From a virus: a stretch of DNA of 64,000 nt. A model generated the notes under the pieces. The model saw only the letters and a program-made list of their open reading frames with translations, did not search any database and had not been told where the DNA came from. Position 1 is the first letter of the stretch, and every line of letters starts with the position of its first letter. Of this stretch, positions 2,524 to 64,000 are shown in pieces. The stretch lies in IMG/VR virus record IMGVR_UViG_3300027896_000014, positions 1 through 64,000 of that record. One strand, 5' to 3'. The translations under genes and the position numbers were made by a program.

Positions 2524-2528
2524 AATTG

Positions 2529-29970: not shown

Positions 29971-31026
29971 ATGGCAAAAGAAAAGGAAAAAGTTGACGAG
30001 GTGAAGTTACCCGTAGAGGAAGAAGGCGAGAAGCCCCCCGAGGGATATACCGCAGAGGAATGGAACGACCTCTCGGACACAGAAAAAGAAGGTGTCCTTA
30101 TTGGCATTAAGGAACCCGACGAAGAAGAACCAGAAGAAATAGACGATGACACCCTGAAGGCGATCGCTGGCGAAGAAGAAAAGCCACCGGAGGAGAAACC
30201 ACCGAAGGAGAAGCTGGCAGAAGAAAAGAAACCCGTAGAGGGAAAACCCCCAGAGGAGAAGCCGCCTGAAGAGAAACCACCGGAGGAAAAGCCACCGGAG
30301 GAGAAACCTCCGGAAGAGAAGGTGGAGGCTCCCGTACGGACATCCGATGAAGAGCTATTGGGTTTCAGGGCATTTGTTGCGGATAGCGAAGTTACCGTGA
30401 ACGAATCGGTTTCCGACGAGGTTCAAAAGAAACTCGATGACCTCACAACTAAATTTGATGCTGGCGACATTGAACGTGCTCAATATGAGAGGGAAAGAGA
30501 CGCACTCAATCGACAGATTATGTACGACACCGAAAGAGATCGGGAACGGGCCAAGGGTGACAAGGTTTGGGAAAAGGAGACCAGGCACTTTTTGGATAAC
30601 CGACCCGAATACCTTGGAGACCTTGGGGAAGATGGCAAGTTTCATACCAATGCGAGGAGTAGAAGTCTTTATGGTGCTCTGGCAGAAACGATAAAAGCAA
30701 TTGGAGCCGATCCCAAGTATGCCAGCGGCACGGGGATGCAACTCCTTATCGCTGCGGATAAGGAGGTTAGACAAGCCTTCGGTATTGTCGAAAAACCCAA
30801 AGAAAAGGGAAAGGAAGTTGTCAAGGAAAAGGTGAAGGAAGAGGGAAAACCGCCTGCACCGCTCCCAGACCATCAGACGCTTAGTGATGTTCCAAATGCT
30901 GCACCCAATACTACGGAAGGTGCATGGGGTCAGTTGGACAAACTTCGTGGCGAAGACTATGAGGAAGCCCTTGAGAGACTGACTCCAAAACAACGAGAAG
31001 CCTATCTTGATAATCTGAGGCGATGA
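29971..31026 (+). CDS. Capsid scaffolding protein
   Basis: Acidic, EEKPP repeats, TLSDVP.A motif, position upstream of capsid gene. Confidence 0.75.
   Translation: MAKEKEKVDEVKLPVEEEGEKPPEGYTAEEWNDLSDTEKEGVLIGIKEPDEEEPEEIDDDTLKAIAGEEEKPPEEKPPKEKLAEEKKPVEGKPPEEKPPEEKPPEEKPPEEKPPEEKVEAPVRTSDEELLGFRAFVADSEVTVNESVSDEVQKKLDDLTTKFDAGDIERAQYERERDALNRQIMYDTERDRERAKGDKVWEKETRHFLDNRPEYLGDLGEDGKFHTNARSRSLYGALAETIKAIGADPKYASGTGMQLLIAADKEVRQAFGIVEKPKEKGKEVVKEKVKEEGKPPAPLPDHQTLSDVPNAAPNTTEGAWGQLDKLRGEDYEEALERLTPKQREAYLDNLRR
30175..30320 (+). repeat. Imperfect 15-bp tandem repeat encoding EEKPP
   Basis: GAGGAGAAACCACCG-like units. Confidence 0.85.
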
Positions 31027-31318: not shown

Positions 31319-32446
31319 ATGGGACAGACAATCATTGGTCTGAATGATGCCAAGGCCGTCAAAAGGTACAGCGGGAACCTGGCGGTCGACGTTGGCAGAA
31401 AGGGTTACTGGACCCGCAAATTCATGGGCAAGGGAGAAGTTCCCACACGTCCGCTCTGGCAGTTGACAGATTTAGAGGCAGATGCAGGTGAGCAGATCAC
31501 CTACGATCTTTCCATGCAACTTAACATGCAGCCCGTGGAAGGCGACACAGAACTCCACGGCAAAGAGGAAGCTCTCCAGTTTTACACCGACAATGTTTAT
31601 ATCGACCAGATGCGCGGTGGTGTGGATGCTGGGGGCAGGATGACCCGCAAACGTACTCTTCATGACCTTCGGAAGATTGCGAAGGCCAGGGAGACCGATT
31701 GGTGGGCCAGGGTATTTGACGAGATTATTTTTATGTACCTCTCGGGTGTTCGTGGGACAAACACCGAGTTTGTCTTTCCGACGAGTTACAGTGGCTTCGC
31801 CAATAACTCACTTACGACACCCGACATCAACCACATCGTAGGCGGCGGGCTTTGCACGGCATCACAGGCGATGGCAGCAACCGATACGATGACCACATTA
31901 CCCATTGATAGAGCGGTGGCCTATGCGGAGATGATGGGTGGTGGTGGACCGGCCTATTCGGAAGTGCCGCAGATTCAGAAATGCGAGGTTGATGGGGAGG
32001 AAATGTTCCTGCTGGTGATGGACCCCAACCAGGCCTTTAACCTTCGCCGCAACACGACATCGATGGATTGGGCGGATATTCAGAAGGCAATCGCCACAGC
32101 AGTAGGCAGAGATACCCCATTTCTCAAGGGTGGCCTTGGGATGTGGAATGGTGTGGTCCTTCACAAGCACCAGAACTGCATCCGATTTACCGCTTATAAC
32201 ACCCTCGGTAGCCCAACGGGAGGCGCTATCGCCGCAACAAGGGCAATCTTTTGCGGACTTCAGGCAGGAGCCATGGCCTTCGGGTCGCCAGGACAGGATC
32301 TTCGGTTCGGATGGAACGAAGAAGGAAGGGACAACAATAACCGGGTAGTCATTTCATCGCATACCATTTGGGGGTTCAAGAAAGTGACCTTCAATGGAAA
32401 CGACTTCGGTGTGATAGCTATCGACACTGCGGCAGTTAAGCCATAA
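31319..32446 (+). CDS. Major capsid protein, N4-gp56/DUF4043 family
   Basis: DLEADAGEQITYDL, VEGD..L.GKEE.L, IDQMR..V, GxLGMWNGVVLH. Confidence 0.9.
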   Translation: MGQTIIGLNDAKAVKRYSGNLAVDVGRKGYWTRKFMGKGEVPTRPLWQLTDLEADAGEQITYDLSMQLNMQPVEGDTELHGKEEALQFYTDNVYIDQMRGGVDAGGRMTRKRTLHDLRKIAKARETDWWARVFDEIIFMYLSGVRGTNTEFVFPTSYSGFANNSLTTPDINHIVGGGLCTASQAMAATDTMTTLPIDRAVAYAEMMGGGGPAYSEVPQIQKCEVDGEEMFLLVMDPNQAFNLRRNTTSMDWADIQKAIATAVGRDTPFLKGGLGMWNGVVLHKHQNCIRFTAYNTLGSPTGGAIAATRAIFCGLQAGAMAFGSPGQDLRFGWNEEGRDNNNRVVISSHTIWGFKKVTFNGNDFGVIAIDTAAVKP

Positions 32447-37026: not shown

Positions 37027-40000
37027 GATTTATGAAATTAAAAAATTTAATCATCATTGGATTGATTCTTTTATTCCCCGTATTTTGCCACGCTGCGGCA
37101 ACTGATTATTGGGTCGATAACAATGGTGTTGTTCATTCTTATAGCCTGATTACCAAAGGTTTTCAATTGGGCACCTCAGCCACCGCTGGCTATGTCTTAA
37201 CCACTAATACTTCCGGTGTGGGAACCTGGCAGGCAGGAGGAGGAAGCATTGCTTGGGGTTCAATTACAGGAACTTTATCTAATCAGACTGATCTTCAAAA
37301 TGCTCTTAATGCCAAGGAATCGGCCTTGACTTTTCAATATTCTGTATATCGAAGTGGGAACACAATTAACCTTCTTAACGATTCGGCATCCCCACCTGCC
37401 TCTTACTACTATGGAACGGATTCAGGAGGAACGAGGGGATTCTTTATCCTGCCCTCCACCTCTGGCATGATCTATCCTGGTCCAGGCATAGCTGTGAGCA
37501 CAGGATCAATGTGGGGAACTTCCATTACTGACAACTCAGACCATTGGAACACTGCTTATGGTTGGGGTTATTGGGCACACACTACCCTTGCGGGATATGG
37601 GATCACCGATGCAGCTCCGCTTGCTCACAAGACGACAGAGGACGCCATAAATGGCTTAGTCTTTGTCAATGGAGCGGGAACCTACTCTGCTAAGGTCATA
37701 GGCACCGATGTTCAAGCATATAATTCCTCCTTAGCCGCCATTGCCGGAGGGACTTGGATTGGTGCAAATTCGATTACCACATTGGGGACAATTGGCACAG
37801 GGGTTTGGCAAGGGACGGCAATAGGAGATACCTACATCTCTTCGGCAAACAACTGGACTACAGCCTATACAGGGAGGGTAACCACATGGAATTCTCCTTT
37901 ACAATTCTCCTCGAATACCGCCTCGATTTTACAGGCCAGCACTACGGTATCTGGCTACCTTTTATCAACTGATTGGAATACCTTCAATACTAAGGAACCT
38001 GCCATATCTGCCGGAGCAACTTCCCAATATTGGAGAGGGGACAAATCTTGGCAGACTCTAAATCAAGCTGCTGTGGCTGGGCTAACTACTTCAGACAGTC
38101 CTACATTCACAGGATTAACTCTTTCTGGAGTAACTTCAACCGGAGCCTCAATTAAACTACAGGAAGGCCCAACTTCTGGAAACACATTCATAGCTCACAA
38201 GGCTCCCAATACCATTACAACCAGTGTGACATACACATGGCCTGAACTGGGAACGACGGGTTACTTTCTAAAACTTAATGATTCAGGTGGGACTCTGGTT
38301 TGGGCTGCTGCTTCTGGTGGTGGTATGACCGATCCCATGACTACTATTGGGGATATGATTTACCGGAATTCTTCCAATATCACTGATCGACGAGCTATTG
38401 GCACTACGGGTCAAATATTAACGGTTTCTGGCGGATTACCCGTTTGGGCTACCCCCGCTACTGGTTTAACCGTTGGAGGTTCTGATAAGGATGTCCAGGT
38501 TAATGCAAGCGGCACCTTTGGAGCAGATACAGGAGTTTTTACTTATGATTATACAAATCATATGCTAAGTGTCTTGGGTTCCTATGCAGGAAGCAAGTTA
38601 TCATTAACTCTACGGAATACATCCACTGGGACAACTTCATATAATCAAATGAGTTTAGGTAATGACATAGCATCAGATAGGTTTTATATAAGACTGCTCT
38701 CCTCATATTTCTCTGGTTTAAGTGAATATTCCTATATTATTAGTAAGGCCAGTGCTCCGATGATTCTTGGAGTGAATGGTTCTGAGGTGATGAGACTTAC
38801 AGGGACTTACGTAAATATAGCTGGTTTAACTGCATCTCAAGTGGTAATGACCGATGCCTCAAAAGATTTAGTATCACAAGCTCCAGCCGCTTTAACTAAA
38901 ACGGATGACACGAATATGACCTTAACGTTGGGGGGAACTCCTGCCACCGCATTACTTCAGGCCGTTTCATTAACTTTGGCTTGGACTGGAACTTTGGCAG
39001 ACGGGAAAATAGCCTCAGCAACCAATTGGAACGCCGCCTATAGCCATAAAACGACTGAGGACGCCCTAAGTGGCCTTGTATTCGTCAGTGGAGGTTCTTA
39101 TTCATCTAAAGTAATCGGGTCAGACGTGCAAGCGTTTAATGCTAACCTTGCCACGATTGCAGGATTGACGCCGGTTCAGAATAAAATTATGGTTGGGAGC
39201 GGCACCCCTGCTTGGTCAGTCTCTTCATTTACGGTTCCAGCTACACCAACGGCAAATAAAGCTCTTATTGGGGATGGCACAAACTTTATTTTAAGTACCC
39301 CTACCGTCCCATTTGCTTCATCTCCCGCAGCGGGAAAAGTAATGATCGGGGATGGAACGAATTGGGTTGCCTCCACCCCGACCTATCCCAACACTTCACC
39401 TGCATCGGGCAAGATTCTGATCGGAGACGGCACAAATTTTATTGCTTCTACTCCTACTTATCCAAACGCATCTTCACCAACGGTAAGGAAAATACTGGTT
39501 TCTGATGGGACGAATTGGGTAGCTTCGACTGAGACCTATGCGGTCCCTGGAACATCTGGGAATGTTATGACATCCAATGGCACAAATTGGATCTCATCAA
39601 CTCCCAGTAGTATGGTCTATCCTGGAGCAGGCATAGCGTTAAGCACGGGGTCTGCATGGGGAACTTCTATCACCGACAACTCAGCCAATTGGAACACAGC
39701 GTATACCAATCGGGTGAGTTCCTGGACTTCTCCCCTCCAATTCTCTTCTAACACTGCTTCAATCCTACAGGCCAGCACCTCGGCAAGTGGATATCTTTCA
39801 TCGACGGACTGGAATACATTTAACAATAAGGAATTTGCCTTAACCTTTCAGTATTCTCTCTACCGAGCAGGGAACACGATAAACCTTTATAACGATTCGG
39901 CATCCCCAGGCAACTCTCAGTATTATGGGACGGATTCGGGAGGAGCGAGAGGGTTTCATACTTTGCCCTCTGGTACTGTCCCAACGGGTACACAAGGAGA

Positions 40001-42188
40001 TATGGTCTACAAGGGGGCGTCTGCCTGGCTTTCTGGAAAGATGTTTACTAACGTAACTGCCTATGCGACTATTGCAGCGGCCGTGGCTTCGGGCAATAAA
40101 TTACTTTTCATTCCTGAAGGAACTTACACGGAAGCTATATCTCTTTCAAGCTTATCTGACATCTTCATAATGGGGGCTGGAAATGGCACCAAAATTAGGC
40201 CCTCAAGCGGAAGTGCTCTTACTGTGTCAAACTGTTCCCACTGTACAGTTTCAAATTTAATGTTAGATGGGTCTGGCGGAGCTTCTTCAGGTATAACCAT
40301 AAATGTAGCTCCTTATGATCGTTTTCAAAACCTATATATCTCAGGCTTTTCAAGCTATGGCATAAATATAAATGGTGATGGTTCAACGGAAACCTATTTT
40401 AGAGACATTTATATTGACGCCATTAATGACACCTGTTTTAATTACACGAGGGGAACAACCACAGATACGGGTGGGATTTATCTTGATAGAGTCAATCTTA
40501 TGCACGAAGGTGGAAGTGGTACAAAAGCACTAAATATCAGTTGTGCTTCCTATACTAACGTCTTCTGGGAAATAAATAATCTTGTTGTTGATGCTTATGC
40601 TTCCTCCTGCCCAATAACTATTACCAATGCTGGCGATGTTAGGGCCATGAATGTCTGGGTGTCTAATAATGTAGCCAACGATGGTTCTATAAAAATTAGT
40701 GGGGGTGGTCAACAAAGCTATGTTCAAATGAGACTCAATAATGGAAATGCCAATGCTTATGGAATAAATTTTATTAATGGAGCAAATCATATATCTTTTG
40801 AGGCGGTTGAGTTTCCCGAAGCAAGTACTAATGGTTACTGTATTTACTTTGATGGTAGTTCCTATACTGACATCAACTTAGGTAGATACCGCACCGAAGG
40901 GCTAACGCCAGTTTTATCAAATCATCCCTCATACATAACTGTTACGAGTACGGGAGGTGCAGGAGGCGGTATAACCTCTTTAAATGGATTAACCGTATCA
41001 TCTCAAACTTTTGTCAATGACACGAATGTAACAATCACCTCTACGGGTTCAACGCACACTTTGGGATGGCAAAGCACGTTGGCGGATGGAAGAATTTACT
41101 CAGCCTCAAATTGGAACACAGCGTATACCAATCGGGTGAGTTCCTGGACTTCTCCCCTCCAATTCTCTTCTAACACTGCTTCAATCCTACAGGCCAGCAC
41201 CTCGGCAAGTGGATATTTATCTTCGACAGACTGGAATACATTCAACAATAAGCAGAATACCTTGACTAACCCCGTAACGGGGACGGGGACTATGTACTAT
41301 CTTGCTGCTTGGTCCTCTACAAACAGTATTCAGCCCCTTGCATCCCTTGGCACTTCCGGCTACGTGCTCACATCTACCGGTGGTTCGTCTCTTCCCACAT
41401 GGCAGGCTGCGACAGGGGGAGGCAACGTATCCACTAATGGTACGCCTGCCCTTCATCAGTGGGGCGTATGGTATGATTCAAGTCATATTAAAGGTGTAGC
41501 GGTCACAGCTTCGAAGGTAGCGTGTACTGACTCCAACGGCGAGCCGATAGCCTGCACAAACCTTACGGATACCACTGTATCAGCTTTTGATCCCACGGTA
41601 AACTCAGTATTTTATGAAGATTTTAATGCCCTATATGAAAATTCGTGGGAGTTGTTCGGTACTGTCGCTGCCTCTGCCCAGGACAGGAATGGAGTCATAG
41701 TAATTTCTGGCGATGATGCTTCTATTATTCCATTAGGGAGACCTGCTCAAAGCAACATTTCTACCCCATATGTCCAGTCAAAGAATCCTACGGTGATAGT
41801 TAGAGAAGCTCAATTTGGAGCTACTCAAACAACCACACGGTATTTTGGTTTAGCAAGCGGTGATTTAACCGCAGTCCCATATAACGGGATTTATTTTAGA
41901 CATGCTAAAAACAGTAATTATTTTGGAGTATGCCGCAAAGCGGGTTCAGAATCAACAATCGATACAGGTGTCACAGCAGCCAACGGGACTTTTCATACTT
42001 TGAAATTCGTGGTAACTGGAACAACTTCGGTTCAATTTTTTGTGGACGGGAGTTCAAAGGGTTCAATTACCAATGCTACCTATATTCCAACAGTAAATAT
42101 GTATTTTAGTCTGGGAGATGATGATGCTACTTTTAAAAGTACAGAAGGTTTATATATAGATTATGTTTATATAAGCCAGAATCGTTGA
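37023..42188 (+). CDS. Long tail-fibre/spike-like protein with beta-helix domain and N-terminal signal peptide
   Basis: WGSITGTLSNQTDLQNAL, TTLAGYGITDA, GYLSSTDWNTFN repeats, pectate-lyase-like LFIPEGTY segment. Confidence 0.85.
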   Translation: MRFMKLKNLIIIGLILLFPVFCHAAATDYWVDNNGVVHSYSLITKGFQLGTSATAGYVLTTNTSGVGTWQAGGGSIAWGSITGTLSNQTDLQNALNAKESALTFQYSVYRSGNTINLLNDSASPPASYYYGTDSGGTRGFFILPSTSGMIYPGPGIAVSTGSMWGTSITDNSDHWNTAYGWGYWAHTTLAGYGITDAAPLAHKTTEDAINGLVFVNGAGTYSAKVIGTDVQAYNSSLAAIAGGTWIGANSITTLGTIGTGVWQGTAIGDTYISSANNWTTAYTGRVTTWNSPLQFSSNTASILQASTTVSGYLLSTDWNTFNTKEPAISAGATSQYWRGDKSWQTLNQAAVAGLTTSDSPTFTGLTLSGVTSTGASIKLQEGPTSGNTFIAHKAPNTITTSVTYTWPELGTTGYFLKLNDSGGTLVWAAASGGGMTDPMTTIGDMIYRNSSNITDRRAIGTTGQILTVSGGLPVWATPATGLTVGGSDKDVQVNASGTFGADTGVFTYDYTNHMLSVLGSYAGSKLSLTLRNTSTGTTSYNQMSLGNDIASDRFYIRLLSSYFSGLSEYSYIISKASAPMILGVNGSEVMRLTGTYVNIAGLTASQVVMTDASKDLVSQAPAALTKTDDTNMTLTLGGTPATALLQAVSLTLAWTGTLADGKIASATNWNAAYSHKTTEDALSGLVFVSGGSYSSKVIGSDVQAFNANLATIAGLTPVQNKIMVGSGTPAWSVSSFTVPATPTANKALIGDGTNFILSTPTVPFASSPAAGKVMIGDGTNWVASTPTYPNTSPASGKILIGDGTNFIASTPTYPNASSPTVRKILVSDGTNWVASTETYAVPGTSGNVMTSNGTNWISSTPSSMVYPGAGIALSTGSAWGTSITDNSANWNTAYTNRVSSWTSPLQFSSNTASILQASTSASGYLSSTDWNTFNNKEFALTFQYSLYRAGNTINLYNDSASPGNSQYYGTDSGGARGFHTLPSGTVPTGTQGDMVYKGASAWLSGKMFTNVTAYATIAAAVASGNKLLFIPEGTYTEAISLSSLSDIFIMGAGNGTKIRPSSGSALTVSNCSHCTVSNLMLDGSGGASSGITINVAPYDRFQNLYISGFSSYGININGDGSTETYFRDIYIDAINDTCFNYTRGTTTDTGGIYLDRVNLMHEGGSGTKALNISCASYTNVFWEINNLVVDAYASSCPITITNAGDVRAMNVWVSNNVANDGSIKISGGGQQSYVQMRLNNGNANAYGINFINGANHISFEAVEFPEASTNGYCIYFDGSSYTDINLGRYRTEGLTPVLSNHPSYITVTSTGGAGGGITSLNGLTVSSQTFVNDTNVTITSTGSTHTLGWQSTLADGRIYSASNWNTAYTNRVSSWTSPLQFSSNTASILQASTSASGYLSSTDWNTFNNKQNTLTNPVTGTGTMYYLAAWSSTNSIQPLASLGTSGYVLTSTGGSSLPTWQAATGGGNVSTNGTPALHQWGVWYDSSHIKGVAVTASKVACTDSNGEPIACTNLTDTTVSAFDPTVNSVFYEDFNALYENSWELFGTVAASAQDRNGVIVISGDDASIIPLGRPAQSNISTPYVQSKNPTVIVREAQFGATQTTTRYFGLASGDLTAVPYNGIYFRHAKNSNYFGVCRKAGSESTIDTGVTAANGTFHTLKFVVTGTTSVQFFVDGSSKGSITNATYIPTVNMYFSLGDDDATFKSTEGLYIDYVYISQNR
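39687..41216 (+). repeat. 108-bp identical direct repeat inside the fibre gene (39687-39794 and 41109-41216)
   Basis: Direct comparison; degenerate third copy near 37850-37990. Confidence 0.85.
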
Positions 42189-46472: not shown

Positions 46473-49400
46473 ATGGGTGTGTTTGACGAGTTTGGGACAG
46501 CAACCGAAAAAGAAGTAAAGCACGAAGAGAAAGTTCCCGGAAGTGTGTTCGCCGAATACGGGAAACCCGAAGGTCCTTCTCTTTTCCAAAGAGGCAAGGA
46601 AGCCGTCCGACAGCTTACCCAACCAATTCCACCGGAAGCATGGGGAGGAGAGGAAAAACCCGCTCATCCAGAATGGGGTACGAGGGCAGATGGGACTCCG
46701 AAGGGACCTGGATTCTTAGGAACATTAAAGAGGCCAGATGGAAAGATTTCAACTGAATTGTCTATCGGGGTAGAAATGGATGGGAAAGAAACCGAGATTC
46801 CCTCCCTTGTTCCTACGTTGACCAAAGATGAAATAGATCACCTTCTGAGTGGGGAAAAACCTACAAAACAAATTATTGATAAAGCCACTGAACATGCGAG
46901 AAAAAGAATCTCAGAGGGTAAGAGTCCATTTGCTCAAGAAGGTGAGCAACCTAAAAAAGAACCCCCTCTTCAACAACCCGAATTTGCCACTGGTCCAGCC
47001 GTACCCGCTCCAAGGGCTTTAGCTCCACTGCCAGAACCAGAGCCCAAGGGTCCCCTTGGAAGGGCTGCCAGAGAACTTAGACCAGCGATCCAGACCGTTG
47101 AAGACATTGCCTCTGTTTACGCACCCCTTGAGGCCGCTGCGAACCTTTTCTCCCAGACCTATGGTCTTGCTGCCACTGGAATAGCTCAACTCGTGGGGCT
47201 TCCTTTTGGTAAATCAAGAGAACTCGGAGAAGCCGTTTCTAAGGCAACCATTTATGAACCGAAAACTGAAGCCGGTAAAAGACTCACTAAGACAGCAGAA
47301 TACCCCTTTGAACTTCTTGATGTCGCCGGAGAAAAGGCGGCTGATATTACCAGAGAAATTACAGGAAGCCCCGCACTTGCTACCGGAGTTGGTACAGCAA
47401 TAAAGGCTGCCCCCCTTGCTCTTGGAGTGAGAAAAACTGCACTATCCGCTCTCAAATCGGTGACCGACTCAACCTGGTATAGAAGCCTTGCCATACCAGA
47501 GAGGAGCCTCGTTGTTCAATCTTTGGATGACATGATTTCTAAGGGGTTGAGCGAGGGCGAGATTCTGCGACGTTGGAATAACCCTTCTTGGAGAGAAGAG
47601 GCTTTAGCGAGGAGGATGAAGGGAGAAGCTCCTCCAGAAGCTCCCGCCGAGGCCGCACCGAAGCCAGAAGTCGCCGTCAAGCCCAAACCATCCCCTAAAG
47701 TAGAAGAGCCAGCTAAAATTAAGCCTTCAGAGACCATCAAAGAACGTGTCCCAATAGAGGAGCCAACCAAAGAAGAAGTTGCAAGAGAGCCTATGGCTGT
47801 GAAGCCAGGAGAGGCAGAAAAACCTGCACCCGAGGCCGAACATCTTCGACCAGCCATTATTCACAACGGTAAAGTTAGTGAAGGCGAAGTCGGTGGTACT
47901 CATCCAGACATTCTCGAAGCCCAAGACATAAGCCCAGAGGAACCGCATGAAAGGGGATTCATTTCTCCTGAAGGAAAGTTTCTTAGCCGGACCGAGGCAA
48001 AGGATTGGGTGAGAGAGAATCAGCCCAAGGTAGCCGAAGAATTGCAGAGACAGACCGGAACGGGTGAAGAACTCTACAGTGAACATTACAGGGAAGCCGC
48101 AGGGATTGAACCGGCAAAGGAAGAAGCAAAACCACTCGAACCCCCTAAAGGATGGACAACTGTAGTTCAGCCTACATGGAGAAAAACTCCAGGTTGGCAA
48201 GCCGAATTAGATTGGAAAGATAAGAGAATAGTTTTTGAGACTGAGGCCGATGCAAAGAATCCCGACATAATTAACCACGAAATTGGGCATATCCAACTTG
48301 AGGATAAATTAGGAGACGTTCAAAAACTTTCCGACAGTTCGCTTCTTGAAGAATATGCGAAGGTGAGAAATGAACCGAAAGATATGCACGTTAATTTTAT
48401 CAGAGAACACCTTGCCATGGATTATGGACAGTATTTAACAAACCCTGATGAGGTTAAGCCAGAATTAAAAACCTTATTTGATAAATATTTTCCAAAGGAG
48501 GTGCCAGATGCCGTTAAAGAAAGGGTCGAGCCAACGCACGATATCGGAGAATATCAGCGAGTTAGTAAGGGCGGGATACCCGGACGGCCACGGGCAGGCA
48601 GGGGCGATCGCATTCTCGAAGGCGGGGAAGTCCCGAAAGAAGAAGAAAAAAAAGTAAAAGAACCTTGGGAGATAACTCAAAGTGAGTATCTTGATGATCT
48701 ATTTGAAGGAATACAAAAGCCAAAAGAACTTGGAGTCGAGAAAAGAAGGCATAAGATAGCAGTAAATAAAGCCCTCTCCGAAGGTAAGCCCGTTCCACCC
48801 GAAGTTTTAGCCGATTATCCAGACCTTCATAAGCCTGCCCTTTCCCCCACCGCCAAAGATCAATATGCTCTCACAAAAGAATCCACCCGAGAAAGTCCTG
48901 CCGAGGTAAAACCTGGCGATTGGTCTAAAGGCGAATCCCGTCCCTTTGCCTTCGATCCGAACTCTACCGAGAATGAAGGTCGATTCAGACTCTACCCGCC
49001 TGAAGATATTAAACCAAACACTTACATAAGCCAAAAGGCAGTTAGGTCCAGAGGGATTGAACCCACTGAAGGTGTTCGATTTCTCTTGGCGGATGCTAAG
49101 GCAGGTGGTCGAGTTATTCAGGCCATTCGCTTTGATAAGTCCATTATGCCAGAAGAGAAGGCGAAAGATTGGTGGGAAGAAAATAAAGGGAAGTTTGAGT
49201 TTGGGGGAATTAAAAAAGAACAGGAAGTTAAACAACCAAGTTTTTTGAGTATTAAAAAAGAAGAAATAACAGGCAAGGAGGCCAAAGATGTTACTACATC
49301 GAACAGCAAAGAATGGAGTGACCTTTTTCTTCGAAAGCTCAGCACTGGAAGATCCGAAGTTCAGGGAATCCTTAAAGATCGCCTTGGAAAAGGATTCAAC

Positions 49401-52400
49401 CCCGAAGATGTCAGGGTCCCAACAGAACTTACAGGACAGCAAAGAGAAACAATAGATAAGGGAGAGCGTTTTGGATACAATGTCGTTTTTTTTGATGGAA
49501 TCAATACGGCATCGAAGTATCACGGCATTTTTAATCCTGACCGTCTCGGAAGAATTTACATCAATACGAATGCTCCAAATGCCGACGTGGCGTTTCGCCA
49601 TGAAGTTATCCACAGCCAGTCTTTATTATACCCTGATGAGTATGCCGACCTTCGTGCTAAACTCAAAAACGAATTCAAGAACTTTGACCAATTTAGAAAA
49701 TCACTAAATGACCTGTATAGAGAGTCTGGTCTTTCGTTACCTAACCAGATTGAAATCGAAAATGAACTTATATCCCATTTAGCGATGGGAGAGAATTATG
49801 AGTATGTCAAAGATGCCGAAAAAATAAAAACCATAATAGATGAATTTCTTAACAAAACGAACATTTCAAGGGCAATCCTTGATTCAGAAAAGGGTGCAAT
49901 TGACCTTTCAGAACTTCGGCAAGCTATCGACAAGGCAATAACTTTCAAAAAAAATATCCATGAGGCCATGCCTCACATCGAAGAGTTGGGTCGCCATATC
50001 TACAATTCAGGTATGACAAAGTTTGAGCCCTGGCAAATCGCTATGAAACAGAAATTGGGAGACTTATGGGATTCAATAAAAGGATACGCAAAGGACATTT
50101 GGGAAAATATCGCAAGCCCTATAAAAGATGAGCGTGGTTCTTTCTCGTTCAAAAAACTTAAACCAGAGGAGGAAGTCGCAGAAGGGAAAAAGACCGGGAA
50201 TGAATTAGAAAAGGCTTACGAAAAATACAAGGATGTCTGGATCGGAAACAAAGATGTTCGTATTTTAAAGGCGAGAGTAGAATCCTCAAACCTTCAAAAA
50301 GACATCATGGAGGTGCTTGGAAAGAAAAAGTATGACCGAGAAGCCCAAGATATTGACAAGGCAATTCAGATTCACATTGATACAAAGAGAAACCCTGAAG
50401 ATGTCAAAAAATATTGGGACAAGTTAACGCCAGAGCAGAAAAGAATCATCACTCTCTCACAGAATCTTCCAAAAGAAGTTATGCCTATTGTCGAAGCAAT
50501 TGAGGGAGACTACAAAAAAATTGGATTGGAGGCTTTGGAAGAAGAAGTAATCAGAAATGTTCTTGATAACTACGCTGCCCGGACATGGGATTTTGGAGAA
50601 GGAAAGAAGGGAGCGGAAAATCTAAGAAAGTTCGGAACCAGAACCAGTCACGCACTACAAAGGAAATTTGCTACCATAATCGAAGGATGGGGGGAAGGGT
50701 TCAACCTTAAATATGAAGGAGCTACAACGAATCTTCGGATATTAAAAGAAGAGGTAGGAAAGACAATCGTTGATAAGAATTTTCTCGATGCCTCCAGCAA
50801 AATAAAGGATGCTGACGGCAGACCGCTTCTCTCTACTATTCATTTTGACGGATATGATCGTGTTGAACATCCTAATTTTAAGAAGTGGAAATGGGCAGGA
50901 AACATCGAAGAAGAGACTACCGAAAGAACAACTGAATCCAGAAAGATATTAAGAGAAACGATCAAGGAAGTAACAAAAAAAGAAGGGGAACCAACAACGG
51001 CTATCTCAAAAGTAGAAGAGAAGGCAAGAGAGGCATTGAGAGCAAGGGGATGGTCTGAAGGCGAGGCCGAACAGATATTAAATCGCATCAAACAGGCTCC
51101 ACCCGGGGATGTCAAAGAAAAGATTATTGAGAGGGAAATCGAAAAGACGATTCAGAAGGAAATTCTCTCAGAACTTAAAATAAGACAACAAGGTAAAAAT
51201 TTCTTCATAGATAAGAACGGTAATATTTTTGAGAGACGGGAAATTTATGCACCGCATGAGCAGGCTAAAAACCTGAACAATATACTTGGAGTTTCAAAAT
51301 TATACGGTATCCCAGGATTGGCAACCATTACTAAATACAATGCAATTTTTAAATCCTGGATATTGTTATCCAGCTTTTTTCATAATTTAGCCTTTAGTAG
51401 AAACTACTTTCTGGGAACGCCAGGGACATGGAAACATCCAAATATCAGAAATGCTTACCAAGATGGGAATAAGGCAATTCAGGCATTGGACCCCGATATT
51501 GTAAGAGGTGTAAAAAACGGATTAACCCTCGGTATCAAGCAGGATTGGGAAGAAGATTTGGTGCGACAAAGAACATTTATTGATAACGTCCTTGACAAAA
51601 CAAAACCCACGGCTACAGTCAGAAATTTCATAAAAGACTTGAGAGAACGACAAACAGATTTTCTTTTTGAAGTCATGGGGGCTGGTTTAAAGACAAAATC
51701 TTATCTTGATTCATATAGGAATATTTTGAGAAGAAATCCGAACATGGACCCGAATGAAGCGGCTAAGATAGCTGCCAAATTACAAAACGACAATTATGGC
51801 GGTTTACACTTACAAAGAAAGGGAAGAAATCCAACGCTTCAACATCTTTTTCGTTTATTTGCTCTGGCACCAGATTGGACCGAATCAAATATTGATCTTG
51901 TTGCCGGTGCGTTCAAAAAAGGTGGGGAAGGAACCCAAGGTCGAAAGGCTTATCAAAGGCTTGTTGGTGGATGGTATCTGAAAGCGTTAGGAGTTACGGC
52001 TCTTGCGAATTATCTTTTGGCCGGTGGTGACATTGACGAAATGATGAAAAATTACAAAATCGCTTGGTATCAAAATAATCTCAGATGGTTAAACATTGAT
52101 GTCACCCCGATTTATAAAGCTTTGGGAGGAAAAGGAGAACAACATAAGTATTTTCCGTTAATAGGCCACATGCTTGACCCCATCAGATTATTAGCTCATC
52201 CCGTTAAATTTGCTCAGAATAAAGGTAGTGTCATTTATCGAATTGCTCACGAAGCCTTAACGGGAACGGACTGGACCCATAGAGAGTTTACGAACTATGA
52301 AGAATTATTAACAACTGGAAAAACTGTTAAATTCGGCAAGGGACATCCTATTGAATGGAATCAATTTCCATCATTTGTTCTATCTCAGACGATAGGAACT

Positions 52401-52892
52401 GAACCAGTCCAAGTTCAAGAATTTATAAGATGGATGAATGGCGAAATAGAAGCCTTTGATGCCATAGGTCAATCCGTAGGAGCAGGCATTATTTCAACTT
52501 ATAGGATTCCTCAAAGTCGTTTTGAGAGATATGCCGCTGATATTCCTCATTTTGGAAAGGAACCAACTGAGAGAACAGAACTTAAAAGAAAACTCGGAGA
52601 ACAATTAAGACTTGAAGAACCGGAAGCCAAAGAAAGGATAAAAGAAGCCTATAGAGAGGAAAAGATTAGTGAACGGGACAAGGAAGATATGGAACGCCAT
52701 GCAAAGATGAGTTCTACGGCCAGGGCCGCCGAGCATATGACTGTCGATGAACTCGCAAAAGGGATTTCTAAAGGGCTAACAGAGGAAGAAAAACGAATCC
52801 TTAAACCCGTATTTAAAAAGCGTATAGACAATGCTAAAAACCTTGACAAAGAAACGAAACGAAGATATCGGGCAATGCAAAAAGAAATGTGA
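46473..52892 (+). CDS. Large multidomain internal virion (polyvalent-type) protein, 2139 aa
   Basis: Size and position; two HExxH motifs (HEIGH, HEVIH). Confidence 0.7.
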
Positions 52893-53162: not shown

Positions 53163-54422
53163 ATGGTAGACCTCTCAAAACTTAACGCTCTTGTGATCGG
53201 ATACGGAGTGTTCGAAGTCTTCATGGCTCAAAAACTGGCCGAAGAGTTCAAGACGGTCAGGCTTTATACGCCTTGCGAAGAGTCTTTCCCTCTTCTGGAA
53301 AAGCAAACTATTGGGGAAGGTGTGCCGGGTGTTACCAGGGTCGATAACTACGAAGACTACAAGGAAGATACCGACCTTTTTTGCTTTTTCGATTACGGTT
53401 TTGCCAGCAAGCAGGAAGAGCTTAGAAAGGCGGGGAAGCGTGTCTTCGGTGCAGGGAACAGCGAAATACTTGAGATGGATCGGATACTGTTTGCCAAGAC
53501 ATTAGCCAACGTTGGACTTCCCGTCTTCAAATATCGCGTCGTAAAAGGTGTGGATGCCCTGACGGATGTGCTGAAAAAGGAAAAAGATTTGTGGGTGAAA
53601 CTGCCAAACAAGGCAAGGGGAATCCGGGAAACCTTTCATCATTCGGAATGGAAAAACTCGATAACAAAGGTTGACGAACTTGCCCATAAGCTCGGTGGGT
53701 ATCGGGACAGCCTTCAGTTCATGGTAGTAGACCCGATACCGGGGATCGAAGCGGGATGTGAGAAGTTTCTCTCAAATGGAGATTACCCTGAGATAGCACT
53801 CTGGGGACCAGAACTCAAGGGAGCCGGATACATTGGAAAAGTAATGGCCATGGCTGACATGCCGAAGGCTCTCAAAAAAGTAGATGACGAAATGGCGAAA
53901 ATTTGGAAGAAGTATAAGGTCTGCGGCCACATTTCTTCTGAAGTCAGGGTAGGCAAAGACAGGAAACCTTATTTTACGGACCCCTGCCAGCGCTTCCCTT
54001 CGCCTCCTGGAGAAGCCGTCTGCGAGGCGTACAAGAACATCTCTCAACTCATCTGGCAAGTGGCAGGGGGAGAGCCTATAAAACCCGAACCCGCTGCTAA
54101 GTATGTAGCTGAGGTCTGTATCTACAGCCCGATAGGAAAAACAGAGTGGGTGCCTGTGAACTTCCCAGAGAAGGAATTTAAAAGGCTGAAATTCCGCCGA
54201 TTGTGTCGCATCGAAGGACAGTATTATTGCCTACCAGACAAGGATGCAGGCGATCGCATCGCTGCCTCCGTAGGTCTTGGCGAAACGAAAGAGGAAGCGG
54301 AGTTCGAGGCAATGGAAGGTTGTGAACAACTAAGGTCAGAGTCCAAAGATTACGACAAGGCAGTTTTTAAAGAGATCGATGAGGTAATGGAGGAGGCGGA
54401 ATCTTACGGGGTGACGTTCTGA
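53163..54422 (+). CDS. PurD-like ATP-grasp ligase
   Basis: VFGAG....LEMDR..F...L..VGLP, WVK, GIE, D...RF..P. Confidence 0.7.
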   Translation: MVDLSKLNALVIGYGVFEVFMAQKLAEEFKTVRLYTPCEESFPLLEKQTIGEGVPGVTRVDNYEDYKEDTDLFCFFDYGFASKQEELRKAGKRVFGAGNSEILEMDRILFAKTLANVGLPVFKYRVVKGVDALTDVLKKEKDLWVKLPNKARGIRETFHHSEWKNSITKVDELAHKLGGYRDSLQFMVVDPIPGIEAGCEKFLSNGDYPEIALWGPELKGAGYIGKVMAMADMPKALKKVDDEMAKIWKKYKVCGHISSEVRVGKDRKPYFTDPCQRFPSPPGEAVCEAYKNISQLIWQVAGGEPIKPEPAAKYVAEVCIYSPIGKTEWVPVNFPEKEFKRLKFRRLCRIEGQYYCLPDKDAGDRIAASVGLGETKEEAEFEAMEGCEQLRSESKDYDKAVFKEIDEVMEEAESYGVTF

Positions 54423-54565
54423 TGGCACAAACAACCATTCCGAGAAATGATCCAAAAGCGGTGAAGAAGTGGGCCGGCGATAGGGAACTTTCCTACGATG
54501 TGCTACGGCAAGCTCAAGAACATCCGCCCAAGAGAAAGAAATTTAAAAGGAGAAGAAAACCATGA
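54422..54565 (+). CDS. 47-aa peptide resembling the capsid protein N-terminus with a basic tail (not in ORF track)
   Basis: MAQTTIPRNDPKAVKKWAGDRELSYDVLRQAQEHPPKRKKFKRRRKP; TGATG and ATGA overlaps on both sides. Confidence 0.7.
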   Translation: MAQTTIPRNDPKAVKKWAGDRELSYDVLRQAQEHPPKRKKFKRRRKP

Positions 54566-55812
54566 AAAAGTTTTTGATTGCTCTATTGCTTATCTTGATT
54601 CTCGGTGCTGTTCAATATTCTCAAAGTCAAACTACGTATTATCAATCGATTCAGTTTAGGCGGGACACTGCTCAAAATTGGACGAACACAAATCCCGTAC
54701 CTCTTCAAGGGGAGCCTTGTTTTGAATGGGATTCAGGTCGCCTCAAGATTGGCGACGGTCTTTCTCACTGGACGGCACTCCCTTATCAGCCGCCCCCCGC
54801 CGCCTATCCGCCTATTTCATGGGGGCAAATCACGGGGTCAGTATCCAATCAAACAGATCTCTACAATAACTATCTTTCCACCTATGTTCCGATGAACAAT
54901 CCAACATTTACGGGGAAAGTTACGACGCAACCTTCTTCAACGTATAGTGCAGGTATAAGTATTCCCCAGGGGACCGCTCCTACTACTCCTTCAAATGGCG
55001 ATGTATGGACCACAGCGAATGGTCTATACGTTCAAATTAATGGAGTTACAATGGGTCCTTTTGCCATTGGACAACCGGTTAGCAATCCGTCCTGGTTTAA
55101 AAATTTGGTTATTAAAACACCAGCGACCACTCAGTTAACAGTCACCGCCGATGCCGTTGGTTTGCTCAATCCATCTAACAATGCCGCTACCACGATATTG
55201 GGCATCGCTGTAAGTATAACCATTACAAATGTTGGGCCGAACGGACTTGACACAGGAACTCTTTCGGCTTCATCGTGGTATAGTGTGTGGGTAATTTATA
55301 ATCCAACAACCCAAACCGCCGCAGGCTTGATCTCTATTAACACCGGATCTCCAAACCTACCGATTGGGTATACTTATTGTGCAAGGCTTGGTTGGGTTAG
55401 AACCAGTGCAAGTAGCACTTTGGTTCCGACCACCCAATATGGCCGCAGAGTTCAATACGTCAATGGCGGGTCAGGTCTTCCCCTGATGGATAGCGGGCTT
55501 AAAGGAAGTATAACCACTCCTACGTGGGTAGCCGTAGCCACAGGAACTTTTGTCCCTCCCACCGCTTATCGGATTACTGTTTTACCTTACGAGTATGCTG
55601 GTTGGGGCATTGCCGTGTGTCCGAATAGTAGTTATGGTGCATATACCAGTACGACAAATCCACCTTTTGCCGTTATAGACTGGCCAAGCATTAGTGCTGT
55701 TAATGCCGCCGGAACGCCCATAGAAATGACTCTTGAAAGCTCGAATATTTATTGGGCAAGCGGAACGGCTACAAGTTACCTTTATTGTATCGGTTTTGAG
55801 GACAATCTTTAA
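54562..55812 (+). CDS. Fibre-like protein with Mtd/hyaluronidase-type N-terminal domain and signal peptide
   Basis: IQFRRDTA.NW...NP....GE..FE.D..RLKIGDG...W..LPY. Confidence 0.8.
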   Translation: MKKFLIALLLILILGAVQYSQSQTTYYQSIQFRRDTAQNWTNTNPVPLQGEPCFEWDSGRLKIGDGLSHWTALPYQPPPAAYPPISWGQITGSVSNQTDLYNNYLSTYVPMNNPTFTGKVTTQPSSTYSAGISIPQGTAPTTPSNGDVWTTANGLYVQINGVTMGPFAIGQPVSNPSWFKNLVIKTPATTQLTVTADAVGLLNPSNNAATTILGIAVSITITNVGPNGLDTGTLSASSWYSVWVIYNPTTQTAAGLISINTGSPNLPIGYTYCARLGWVRTSASSTLVPTTQYGRRVQYVNGGSGLPLMDSGLKGSITTPTWVAVATGTFVPPTAYRITVLPYEYAGWGIAVCPNSSYGAYTSTTNPPFAVIDWPSISAVNAAGTPIEMTLESSNIYWASGTATSYLYCIGFEDNL

Positions 55813-56175: not shown

Positions 56176-56931
56176 ATGAAAAAGAAATTGATTGCTGTTT
56201 TACTTGGAGCGCTTTTCCTTGGGGTCCTTGCTTCCCCATGCTTCTCTCAAAGCATCGGCGGATTTGGAATGGTGCCCGTCACGGGTAGATTGCTCAAAGT
56301 AACGGTTCTGACTTCTGGCACCAGCTTTGTCGCCCAGACCTGGACTACCCAACTCGTCGTTGAAGTTGTGGCTGCTGGCGGTGGTGGCGGTGGTGTTAGC
56401 GGGACTGCTTCAAACGCAGCATGCGGAGGCGGCGGCGGTTCCGGTGGGTATGCCCTTAAATATTTTACAGGAGTAAGCGGGGGCGCAACCTATACCTATG
56501 CAATTGGAGCTGGAGGTACGGCTGGGGCGAACACGGGAGGCACAGGGGGGACAGGAGGCAATACGACCTTCACGGGACCTGGTGCAGTTCTTATCACAGC
56601 CAATGGAGGGCTTGGCGGAGTTGGCATAGTCTACAATACTACGGCTGCGGTCGTCGCTGGTGGAGCAGGCGGAGCGGTAAGCACAAACGGAGACCTCAAT
56701 GCTGGTGGCACGGGCGGAGAATTCGCCAAGCGTGATTCTGGAACTTTGGCCGTCAGTGGCGGCGGAGCGGCAAGCATCTTCGGAGGCGGTGGAGTTGGGT
56801 TGACCGCACAGGGGAACGGAACTAATGCGACCGGATATGGAGCCGGTGCTGGTGGGGCTTTGTCCACTGCTGCTGCCTATACTGGTGGAGTCGGAGCTGG
56901 TGGCGTAATAATCGTCTGGGAATTTTCATAA
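56176..56931 (+). CDS. Glycine-rich fibre-tip-like protein with signal peptide
   Basis: VEVVAAGGGGGG, GGGGGSGGY, IGAGG, GVIIVWEF. Confidence 0.8.
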   Translation: MKKKLIAVLLGALFLGVLASPCFSQSIGGFGMVPVTGRLLKVTVLTSGTSFVAQTWTTQLVVEVVAAGGGGGGVSGTASNAACGGGGGSGGYALKYFTGVSGGATYTYAIGAGGTAGANTGGTGGTGGNTTFTGPGAVLITANGGLGGVGIVYNTTAAVVAGGAGGAVSTNGDLNAGGTGGEFAKRDSGTLAVSGGGAASIFGGGGVGLTAQGNGTNATGYGAGAGGALSTAAAYTGGVGAGGVIIVWEFS

Positions 56932-61244: not shown

Positions 61245-61963
61245 TTCTCCTCACAGATATAGACGGGAATACCTACAGCCTGTTGAATTTCTAATTTCAT
61301 CCTGACTTCATCACTATTGCCATCGCTCAAATGGGTCAAAAAGATTGCCCTACAACGACTAAGATTATTGGCTTTTAGCATAGAAATTAGATTTTCAAGA
61401 GACATGTGAGACCTGCGAACTCGCTTTCCGACTATCGCGGGAATGTGGCCCTCAAGGATATTCTTGCTAAGAAGCTCGGAGATGTTGTTGCACTCTACGG
61501 CGATCATTGTGATTCCTTGGAAGCGATTTTCAACGTAGGCTGTGTCTGGAATGAACAAGAGGCGATCATTGTCACGGGCTATGAAGAAACCTATTGGATC
61601 TGGAGCATCATGCTCAAGGGGGAATGCTGTAACGAATCCTCCAGGGATGGGCAGCGGTTCTAAATAATTGTCCCACATGTGACTTCGATGGTGTCTAACT
61701 ACCCCCAATGTCATAGCTGTTCCGTAACTCATCCAGCAGTCAACTCCCGTTTTCAATAAATCTTTCACCGCCTTTGAGTGGTCGCCATGACTATGACTAC
61801 AAAGACAGCCCCCGAGATCCGACAGGCTTATTCCGTGCTCTCTCAATTTATCCCTCAATCGATTGATCGGAAGACCGGCTTCGAGAAGAAGGGGGGCAGC
61901 TCCTTCGGATTGAAGGAGATATGCATTACCCCTTGAGGATGAGGCAAATGAAGTGAAGTTCAT
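61241..61963 (-). CDS. MBL-fold metallo-hydrolase (copy B)
   Basis: SHSHGDH and other motifs; homologous to 100-846. Confidence 0.9.
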   Translation of the reverse strand: MNFTSFASSSRGNAYLLQSEGAAPLLLEAGLPINRLRDKLREHGISLSDLGGCLCSHSHGDHSKAVKDLLKTGVDCWMSYGTAMTLGVVRHHRSHMWDNYLEPLPIPGGFVTAFPLEHDAPDPIGFFIARDNDRLLFIPDTAYVENRFQGITMIAVECNNISELLSKNILEGHIPAIVGKRVRRSHMSLENLISMLKANNLSRCRAIFLTHLSDGNSDEVRMKLEIQQAVGIPVYICEEK

Positions 61964-62253
61964 AGGGATATCTCCGTGAGTGGCTTCGGTTCAAAACTTA
62001 CGTCTCTCTCAAAATCCCCTTTTGGCCATCTTGCAACCTCATCCCACTTGAATGTTTGATAGCAGTCTAAAGCTCTTTCTTTTGGATAGATCGTCAGCAT
62101 GATCGCCAGGGCAAGTTGAGCGGGCCCAGATCCGCCATATCCCCAATTAAAACCATCGGGAGAATGATTTCTCACTTTCTGACTCGCTTCTGGACGTAGG
62201 AGAACCCCATCAATCCAAATCTCTCCTGTACTCCACTTCCCCTTAACTTTCAT
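61960..62253 (-). CDS. DUF6166-like protein
   Basis: NHSPDGFNWGYGGSGPAQLALA. Confidence 0.75.
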   Translation of the reverse strand: MKVKGKWSTGEIWIDGVLLRPEASQKVRNHSPDGFNWGYGGSGPAQLALAIMLTIYPKERALDCYQTFKWDEVARWPKGDFERDVSFEPKPLTEISL

Positions 62254-62265
62254 AATTGTCTCCCT

Positions 62266-63252
62266 TCAAAACCCGGGTGCCCTTTTTTCTCCCAAAACCA
62301 TCCCTTTTTTCAGGAGAGCCGTCTGCTCTTCCTCTGGAGAAGGCAAATCATTGTCTGGTGGGGCTTCCGGCTTCTTCGTCTCTTCTGGTTCTCCCTGTGC
62401 CACCTTCCCCGATTCCTCCGGTATCATGATTACTGATCCCTTGTTTGCCTTATCCTCGATCTCCATCTGAACCGCAGCCTCATCTGCCAATTCCTCCATC
62501 CGGTTGATTCTCTCCAAGAGCAGGGCATTATCACTACTTGCGTTGATAATGAATTTGGCGACCTTGTTGATGATGGTCCTCAGAGCCATGTCCCGGGCAA
62601 ACCTTCCATGCGTGCTTTCTGGCTTGAGCTCGCCCTTGTCGTCAAAAGGTTTCATCTTCGACATCTTCCAGGCCTGGTGAATCTCTTCAATGGTCATGAT
62701 CTCGGTCTTGATCGGGTCTCCATCCTTGTCTAATGCCATGGCGTAGGCTGCTATAATTTTCAGTTTATCCATGTTCTCAAGGCTCTGAACATGTTCGATG
62801 ACGGCTTTCTTGCCGTTGTGGATTCCAAACGAGAATTTATCTCCCTCGTAAACCACATCATAGCCCCAATCCTTAATGGTGGGGTTGACCATCTCTGCCA
62901 CGGCCATTGATCCAAAATAGGAGCGCTGGCAGGAAAGGGTCTTACCATATACGATAAAGTAACATTGTTTCTTGCCGGGGTTCAGCCCTTGGACGACCAT
63001 GTCAAGGACGGCGTTGGCAATGCTGGCCTTCGTACAAACCCCTGTGAGTTTCCCGTCCTCCATAACCTTCTTTTTCTCCTTATCCTCGACGGTGTTCAGG
63101 GTCAGGTAGGCAGATTTCAAGGCATTATCCACTGAATAATTCTTGGGAAGGTCGAGTTGCCCGGATTTCAGGAACTCGGAAACCTTCTCGCTCACAATGT
63201 CCACTACGGACTTCTCTACTGCTGGGGTATTCTTCTTTTCTACTGTTGCCAT
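62266..63252 (-). CDS. recT: RecT-family recombinase (copy B)
   Basis: Homologous to 1534-2523. Confidence 0.9.
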   Translation of the reverse strand: MATVEKKNTPAVEKSVVDIVSEKVSEFLKSGQLDLPKNYSVDNALKSAYLTLNTVEDKEKKKVMEDGKLTGVCTKASIANAVLDMVVQGLNPGKKQCYFIVYGKTLSCQRSYFGSMAVAEMVNPTIKDWGYDVVYEGDKFSFGIHNGKKAVIEHVQSLENMDKLKIIAAYAMALDKDGDPIKTEIMTIEEIHQAWKMSKMKPFDDKGELKPESTHGRFARDMALRTIINKVAKFIINASSDNALLLERINRMEELADEAAVQMEIEDKANKGSVIMIPEESGKVAQGEPEETKKPEAPPDNDLPSPEEEQTALLKKGMVLGEKRAPGF

Positions 63253-63268
63253 GATTGTTATCTCCTTT

Positions 63269-63832
63269 CTATTTGAATAGTTTTGATTGCTCTAATTCTT
63301 TAATTCTCTTTTGTAATTGCTGTATTTGTTTCAATCTACCATCGTGCAACCCCTTTGCATAACCAGCCCTATAGCCTTTCCCATGTTCAAGGCTATGAGA
63401 ACCAGCTTTGGTAAGTTCAAGGTTTTCAATTCTATTGTCGTCCTTAATGCCATTTTTGTGATGAACAATCTCTTTTGGTTTTAAGCAGCGACCAATATGT
63501 TTAGCCATAACCAAGCGATGTTCAAGGACGTAACCTCTGACAGCCATTGGATAATAGAAATCGCCTGAATAAACTTTCGTTTTTATGTAGCCATCCAGTT
63601 CTTTAAGACGACCGCCTTTCCAATTTGGGTGCGCTATCCCAACAGGATTTTTATATTTTTTGTTCTTCCCAGCGCAACTACAACATAAAGTTTTGTTTGG
63701 TTTCTGTCTTATTAAATTAACCCATCTTTCTTTTCCGCAATCTTCGCAGGCGTGCCAGATATAACCATTTCCGTAATTTCGCCCTATCTCTCGACCTCTT
63801 TTTATCTCACCGAGTATTGGCATGCTTACCAA
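63269..63832 (-). CDS. HNH endonuclease (copy B)
   Basis: Homologous to 2529-3101. Confidence 0.9.
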   Translation of the reverse strand: MVSMPILGEIKRGREIGRNYGNGYIWHACEDCGKERWVNLIRQKPNKTLCCSCAGKNKKYKNPVGIAHPNWKGGRLKELDGYIKTKVYSGDFYYPMAVRGYVLEHRLVMAKHIGRCLKPKEIVHHKNGIKDDNRIENLELTKAGSHSLEHGKGYRAGYAKGLHDGRLKQIQQLQKRIKELEQSKLFK

Positions 63833-64000
63833 CCTCCGTTTCGACTCTAAGGGTGGTGTCCTTTGGGGACACGTAGAGAGAAATCACCTGCCCTGGCATT
63901 TCGGGAATTTCAGTACAACTTTCCCGATTATCAATGAAAATCGGAGCACGTAATCCATAAAATTGTTGTAGAGTCTTTATAATATCCATTCCAGATTGCG
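63807..64000 (-). CDS. 3' end of SbcC-like ATPase (copy B), truncated by the window edge
   Basis: Same C-terminus as 3076-5061. Confidence 0.9.
   Translation of the reverse strand, partial: QSGMDIIKTLQQFYGLRAPIFIDNRESCTEIPEMPGQVISLYVSPKDTTLRVETEVGKHANTR

Follow-up and report, generated by a model that had tools for sequence, protein, structure and literature searches.

Here, we describe a family of rare peptides of 42–49 aa that, as judged by sequence comparison, belong to GP4/Bcep22-type podophages and descend from a single capture of approximately the first 20–27 codons of a PF13252 major capsid protein gene, to which a polybasic tail was added. One member is encoded by a mini-gene in the window, that is, the whole 64-kb stretch of DNA analyzed here, corresponding to positions 1–64,000 of an IMG/VR virus record that is 145 kb long and derives from a freshwater metagenome. 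The peptides constitute a new family of small proteins, clear in its evolutionary origin and with a putative function that is probably head-related. More specifically, we propose, with a probability of roughly 0.4, that the peptide is a putative surrogate of the capsid N-arm in head assembly, the tail of which would bind either DNA or an acidic scaffold.

The mini-gene and its homologues

The following features of the window are relevant to the analysis:

29971..31026, + strand: candidate scaffolding protein, 351 aa, very acidic, with PEEKP repeats and a basic C-terminal end
31319..32446, + strand: resident major capsid protein, 375 aa, PF13252 (E 2e-53) and phrog_334 (E 3e-95)
31319-31399, + strand: N-arm of the resident capsid gene, the counterpart of the start of the mini-gene
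46473..52892, + strand: giant virion protein, 2139 aa
53136..54422, + strand: PurD-like ATP-grasp protein, 428 aa, with the probable true start at ATG 53163
54422..54565, + strand: mini-gene, 47 codons, coordinates including the stop; net charge of the product, +10
54422..54502, + strand: mini-gene codons 1-27, homologous to the PF13252 capsid N-arm
54530..54562, + strand: mini-gene codons 37-47, Lys/Arg tail with 0 acidic residues
54547..54552, + strand: AAGGAG ribosome-binding site of the fiber gene, inside the tail-coding DNA, 9 nt before ATG 54562
54562..55812, + strand: Mtd_N-type tail-fiber-like gene, translationally coupled downstream of the mini-gene

The mini-gene is interlocked with its neighbors at both ends: its ATG and the TGA stop codon of the upstream 428-aa gene have one base in common (TGATG), and its own TGA overlaps the ATG of the downstream fiber gene (ATGA). 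Both overlaps, along with the Arg/Lys tail, had been reported in a first-pass annotation of this DNA and are present in the sequence as described. Translation, which the same annotation considered likely, appears very likely from the coupled overlaps at both ends combined with purifying selection. The tail is basic solely in the real frame, the other two frames of the same DNA being Glu-rich; two or three of its basic residues are dictated by the ribosome-binding site of the next gene. Searches of Pfam and PHROGs gave no match to the peptides even at an E value of 10, RNA structure is absent from the mini-gene region (fold z-score 0.47), and a scan for promoters and terminators remained at chance level. 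The stretch is present in one DNA sequencing run (a freshwater metagenome, which may be the source sample), and no RNA runs are listed for it.

Five further distinct homologues, 42–49 aa long, were identified in metagenomic phage contigs, for six members in all. The L003 (46 aa) and L004 (42 aa) peptides are encoded downstream of the two closest ATP-grasp homologues with readable contig DNA, and three more members (43, 49, and 49 aa) were added when 1.84 billion proteins were searched exhaustively with a profile, a search that recovered P0033, P0035, P0036, and P0037. A word-indexed protein search with a single peptide as the query returned the self-match alone, and a peptide-specific degenerate DNA pattern produced 0 matches in 2.9 million viral contigs and 596 Gb of prokaryotic genomes; the distribution of the family is rare and patchy. 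In the phage that carries P0036 (L216:1-1370 / L217:8346-10753), genes for a 552-aa methyltransferase and a 250-aa glycosyltransferase-like protein were observed between the head genes and an SU10-type adaptor gene.

Substitution rates, a check proposed in the first-pass annotation, indicate that the peptide is under purifying selection. In the comparison of the window with L003, the whole peptide shows pN of 0.16 against a saturated pS of 0.94, compared with pN of 0.17 for the neighboring enzyme; over the first 27 residues, the two agree at 24 (pS about 1.0, pN 0.047), and the differences in the first 34 codons are distributed over the three codon positions as 5/5/20 (P = 2e-4). All six diverged genomes, in which three different genes follow the mini-gene, keep the frame intact. 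On this pattern of conservation, the mini-gene is a genuine, conserved small protein-coding gene.

Relationship to the capsid N-arm

The resident capsid protein is of a type also found in Bcep22, GP4, and Stx podophages. A likeness between the mini-gene product and the start of this protein (approximately 14 identities in 27 columns) had been claimed from inspection and is borne out by BLASTP, with 15/31 identities between peptide residues 1–31 and capsid protein residues 1–29 (E 2e-6). The likeness also survives shuffled controls: the score against the capsid protein was matched by 0 of 5000 shuffles and, when every open frame of the window was searched, by 1 of 200. Profile-profile comparison (hhalign) of the peptides with the capsid family adds further support, with a probability of 96.3–96.6% and E values of 1.9e-9 using three peptides and 4.8e-10 using six; the homologous stretch aligns peptide residues 1–29 with residues 1–27 of the PF13252 capsid proteins.

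Scans of related loci with the peptide alignment yielded 67 matches (53 viral and 14 metagenome loci), all of which are capsid gene starts, and nothing else. Each match begins at the capsid gene start or no more than a few codons from it; the matched genes encode about 370 aa when complete, and the rest are cut by a contig end or split by an insert. Interruption of the PF13252 capsid gene after approximately residues 63–110 was observed in L020:4046-6044, L095:2-1924, L096-L098, L107, L108, L113, L116, and L117. In L020 and L095, the insert is about 0.9 kb long and contains an HNH-type endonuclease ORF of 238–254 aa, and the capsid frame resumes after it. The interruption is probably an intron or a homing-endonuclease insertion; it leaves an 80-aa “exon 1” ORF that begins with the N-arm.

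The peptides largely keep the positions at which capsid proteins show little or no variation (M1, T4, N9, D10, K12, A13, V14, K15, and L21). The NDPKAVKKW-type residues of the peptide correspond to the capsid family consensus, and some of them are altered in the resident capsid clade; these residues look like retained ancestral states, such that a recent foreign origin is not required. A PMAVK variant shared by two peptides and one unrelated capsid protein was treated as coincidence or shared tolerance. In the one extra pair recovered, no co-variation of the peptide with its own capsid arm was seen.

Compared with the PF13252 major capsid N-arm (for example, that of Ralstonia phage GP4 gp2, PDB 8h89), to which it is homologous over residues ~1–27, both starting from the initiator Met, the peptide carries a 2-residue insertion after Gly19 and an added polybasic tail, and the hydrophobic positions 7–8 of the arm are polar or basic. 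With 47 residues, it lacks the HK97-fold body (E-loop, P and A domains) of the ~370-aa capsid protein and, therefore, is not a capsid protein. The 2-residue insertion is common to six of the six peptides and absent in all capsid proteins, which argues that the capsid arm was captured once, long ago, and has been retained since; all six peptides also have polar or basic residues at positions 7–8 and a net charge of +9 to +12. The suggestion that the mini-gene is not a recent copy is accordingly upheld, both by this insertion and by the saturation of synonymous sites. The peptide evolves faster than the capsid arm: in two phages with arms that differ at only 2 of the first 25 residues, the peptides are only ~51% identical.

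Genomic position and the neighboring ATP-grasp enzyme

In L211, L212-214, and L215, the mini-gene directly follows the gene for a giant virion protein (5484, 2656, and 966 aa, respectively), overlapping or abutting its stop, and is followed by genes that differ among the three. The giants form two groups with related C-terminal regions, and the giant of the window belongs to one of these; in the window, the giant gene and the mini-gene are separated by two other genes. The conserved position is the border between the block of internal-protein genes and the next late genes (the Mtd_N fiber gene where visible), and the ATP-grasp gene is a separate insert. In G004, the ATP-grasp stop overlaps the fiber start with no mini-gene between them, and in two other contigs (L005:1657-2367, L006:1418-2128), a GIY-YIG/NUMOD3 homing endonuclease occupies the slot of the mini-gene at the ATP-grasp/fiber junction; this junction is an insertion hot spot. 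Across the members, the relation of the mini-gene to the upstream gene ranges from a 1-nt overlap through in-frame abutment to gaps of 11 nt and 83 nt. Fusion to the upstream gene by read-through or frameshift was considered and rejected because the frame relation varies among members.

The mini-gene is missing from G001, a complete relative of 62 kb with a capsid protein 77–79% identical, and is therefore dispensable for building this capsid type. With regard to absence or frameshift in close relatives, as envisaged in the first-pass annotation, the frame is intact in six genomes, and the gene is absent from this relative.

The 428-aa protein encoded upstream of the mini-gene gave no Pfam or PHROG match. 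Its AF2 model (pLDDT 93) yielded a full-length Foldseek match to PurD/GAR synthetases (E 5e-23, TM 0.74); the 15 best matches listed are all PurD/GAR synthetases, and the next ones are an L-amino-acid ligase, biotin carboxylases, and PurK/PurT. The enzyme is thus predicted to adopt a PurD-like fold, that is, one of the small-molecule ligase type rather than the peptide-ligase type. Relatives of this protein are present in at least 132 viral contigs, where they sit among late or structural genes in the contigs examined; the best 80 have no mini-gene within 3 kb.

Adjacency of the two genes in the window, L003, and L004, with start/stop overlap in the window and L003, could suggest that the peptide is a substrate, tag, or regulator of the adjacent ATP-grasp ligase, analogous to the precursor of a RiPP (ribosomally synthesized peptide), as had been raised in part from inspection. 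We consider this very improbable. The enzyme adjoins the mini-gene in 3 of the 6 members, and it is absent from the 4–48 kb recovered around each of the other three (L211, L212-214, and L215); the 83-nt gap in L004 breaks the coupling; and structural comparison ranks PurD/GAR synthetases first, ahead of small-molecule ligases and carboxylases. Looking downstream of ATP-grasp homologues for the same micro-ORF, a further check proposed earlier, recovered it at L003 and L004 but not at the best 80 viral loci, nor in five further contigs examined. A RiPP or graspetide system would combine a precursor with a ligase of the peptide-ligase type and consistent co-occurrence, neither of which is found here; by these tests of fold and co-occurrence, the mini-gene product is not a RiPP precursor.

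Several other observations concern the record and the genes around this locus. The same 145-kb record encodes a second ATP-grasp paralogue, 26% identical, at 109442-110548 on the − strand. Two copies of a RecT-containing early module, with 88% DNA identity, flank the structural block (window 1534-3267 and 62266-63998), and a further pair of duplicated RecT-module segments lies at window 611-847 and 61728-61964. The record contains one capsid gene only; possible explanations are chimeric assembly, related phages in tandem, and genuine duplication. A gene for a 1721-aa protein contains a direct repeat of 155 bp with 95% identity between the copies (window 39679-39830 and 41098-41252). Basic-hydrophobic leaders resembling signal peptides are present in the Mtd_N fiber-like protein (window 54562-54640) and in a Gly-rich fiber-tip-like protein (56176-56250); such leaders are unusual for virion proteins of tailed phages.

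Putative role in the phage head and competing explanations

No part of an HK97-fold capsid protein is more mobile or more interactive than the N-arm, which in P22 locks neighboring subunits after maturation. The closest solved capsid protein to that of the window phage is GP4 gp2 (PDB 8h89, E 2e-98), and the portal is of the P22 type. In the T=9 capsid of GP4, the cement trimer lies over arm residues 2–15 and the E-loop of another capsomer, and arm residues 14–19 add a strand to the neighboring subunit of the same capsomer (PMC9698820). In the P22 procapsid, the scaffold docks through its C-terminal helix-turn-helix onto the coat N-arm, which refolds on maturation (PMC9965877). A gene for a 184-aa protein after the capsid gene (window 32476-33030) shows a weak match to the GP4 cement protein 8h89_J (E 0.017), and its product is probably, by this resemblance, a trimeric cement or decoration protein of a T=9 head.

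Under the proposed mechanism, the peptide would serve as a surrogate N-arm, either during head assembly or once the head is complete, taking a site that normally receives a capsid arm. That it could fill such a site follows from the conservation, in its first ~20 residues, of most of the invariant or near-invariant positions of the capsid arm, combined with the roles of the arm in GP4 and P22. Candidate sites would be the arm-less sites next to the portal, free capsomers, and the coat-binding end of the procapsid scaffold, and the tail, in peptides that carry +9 to +12 net charge, would retain a polyanion, which may be the packaged DNA or a very acidic scaffold; the acidic scaffold candidate of the window is a possible partner by this reasoning. 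The peptide would be present in few copies per head, for example, at portal-adjacent arm-less sites or inside the head with the giant proteins: its place after the genes for giant internal proteins and its coupling behind low-copy genes point to a sub-stoichiometric, internal or portal-near role rather than one in the shell lattice. Several points count against a surrogate arm. In a complete lattice, the capsid protein itself already fills every arm site, and two or three of the basic tail residues are explained by the downstream ribosome-binding site. A core role in assembly is further weakened because the gene is dispensable in a close relative and the peptide outpaces the capsid arm in evolution. 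Complex prediction for the peptide with two arm-less copies of the capsid protein, run without controls, gave a score of 0.00, which speaks neither for nor against the proposal.

Other functions have to be weighed against the surrogate arm. The peptide might be a partner of the giant internal (polyvalent) virion protein that loads, anchors, or neutralizes the giant, with the arm-like part as a head-targeting signal. Such a partnership would fit the three members in which the mini-gene comes directly after the giant gene, overlapping or abutting its stop, and the relatedness of the C-terminal regions of the giants, in two groups. It seems rather unlikely, as the C-terminus of the L008 giant is 64% identical to that of L215, yet L008 has no mini-gene, and two genes separate the giant gene from the mini-gene in the window. 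At the opposite extreme, the mini-gene might be a relic, a capsid fragment with no peptide function that is kept open only to bridge translational coupling and to supply the downstream gene with a purine-rich leader. The overlaps of start and stop on both sides, the downstream ribosome-binding site inside the tail-coding DNA, and the lack of RNA structure in the region (z = 0.47) would all be compatible with a relic. We nevertheless find this improbable, given that the amino acids are conserved despite saturated synonymous sites, the frame has stayed intact in all six diverged genomes even though three different genes follow it, and acidic codons are avoided in the tail in the real frame only.

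Interference among phages is the remaining alternative: as a decoy, the peptide would compete with the N-arms of co-infecting related phages and poison their head assembly, the resident capsid being tolerant. The patchy, accessory distribution would agree with such a role, as would the better fit of the peptide arm to other capsid subclades (19/25 identities) than to the resident clade (14–15/25). Retention of ancestral residues, however, accounts for the better fit: P11 is also present in the consensus of the capsid alignment, which includes rows recovered with peptide-derived patterns; the top-ranked loci likewise came from peptide-derived patterns, an ascertainment bias. Location in a late structural operon with translational coupling is atypical of exclusion genes, and the resident arm differs only conservatively, so that self-poisoning would be hard to avoid. 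All told, a decoy appears unlikely.

The design of the putative surrogate arm has a counterpart in phage T4. The product of T4 gene 61.1 (54 aa, phrog_1823) is likewise a free copy of a capsid arm with a charged, Lys-rich tail: residues 2–38 of gp61.1 match residues 57–93 of gp23 with 17/37 identities (E 6e-9), and the Lys-rich tail follows. The two differ in several respects. The copy in gp61.1 comes from another capsid family and spans the protease cleavage site, its tail is mixed Lys/Glu where that of the mini-gene product is purely basic, and gene 61.1 adjoins the primase gene, unlike the mini-gene. There is no alignment between gp61.1 and the mini-gene peptide at E ≤ 100, and the peptide has no PHROG match. 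The shared design is an analogy: gp61.1 and the mini-gene peptide represent convergence from different capsid families. A literature search on partial duplications of capsid genes and on gp61.1 found nothing functional.

Among characterized proteins, the closest functional model for a putative dock joined to a DNA-binding tail is, by analogy, protein J of the microviruses (phiX174 group), a very basic protein of 26–38 aa that lines the inside of the coat, where it touches the genome (PMC12328618). The peptides described here (42–49 aa, +9 to +12) are likewise small and have a polybasic segment, but protein J comes from an ssDNA microvirus, and its docking part, unlike the arm-like part of the mini-gene peptide, is not derived from the coat protein. 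The capsid protein homologue Ccm of SaPIbov5 (PMC8569155) provides a precedent for a copied head-assembly protein that acts on capsid assembly; Ccm has the full capsid fold and is encoded by a parasite, whereas the mini-gene copies the arm alone and resides within the late operon of the phage itself.

On a broader and more speculative reading, which we consider doubtful, N-arm mini-genes would form a recurrent, convergent class of head peptides of tailed phages that enter the head by imitation of the arm and act via a charged tail, at the arm-less sites of the portal or as internal partners of DNA or scaffold, with the podophage family and T4 gp61.1 having arisen independently. Neither Pfam nor PHROGs contains a match to a free arm copy joined to a polybasic tail, and the literature search turned up no description of one. 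The T4 example suggests that the design is general and has been overlooked because ORFs of this kind are short and frequently left without annotation. A decoy function would make the peptide a new form of interference between phages. Should it instead be a head component, it would add a new type to the minor capsid or internal proteins of tailed phages and would offer a natural tool to probe the arm-dependent steps of head assembly.
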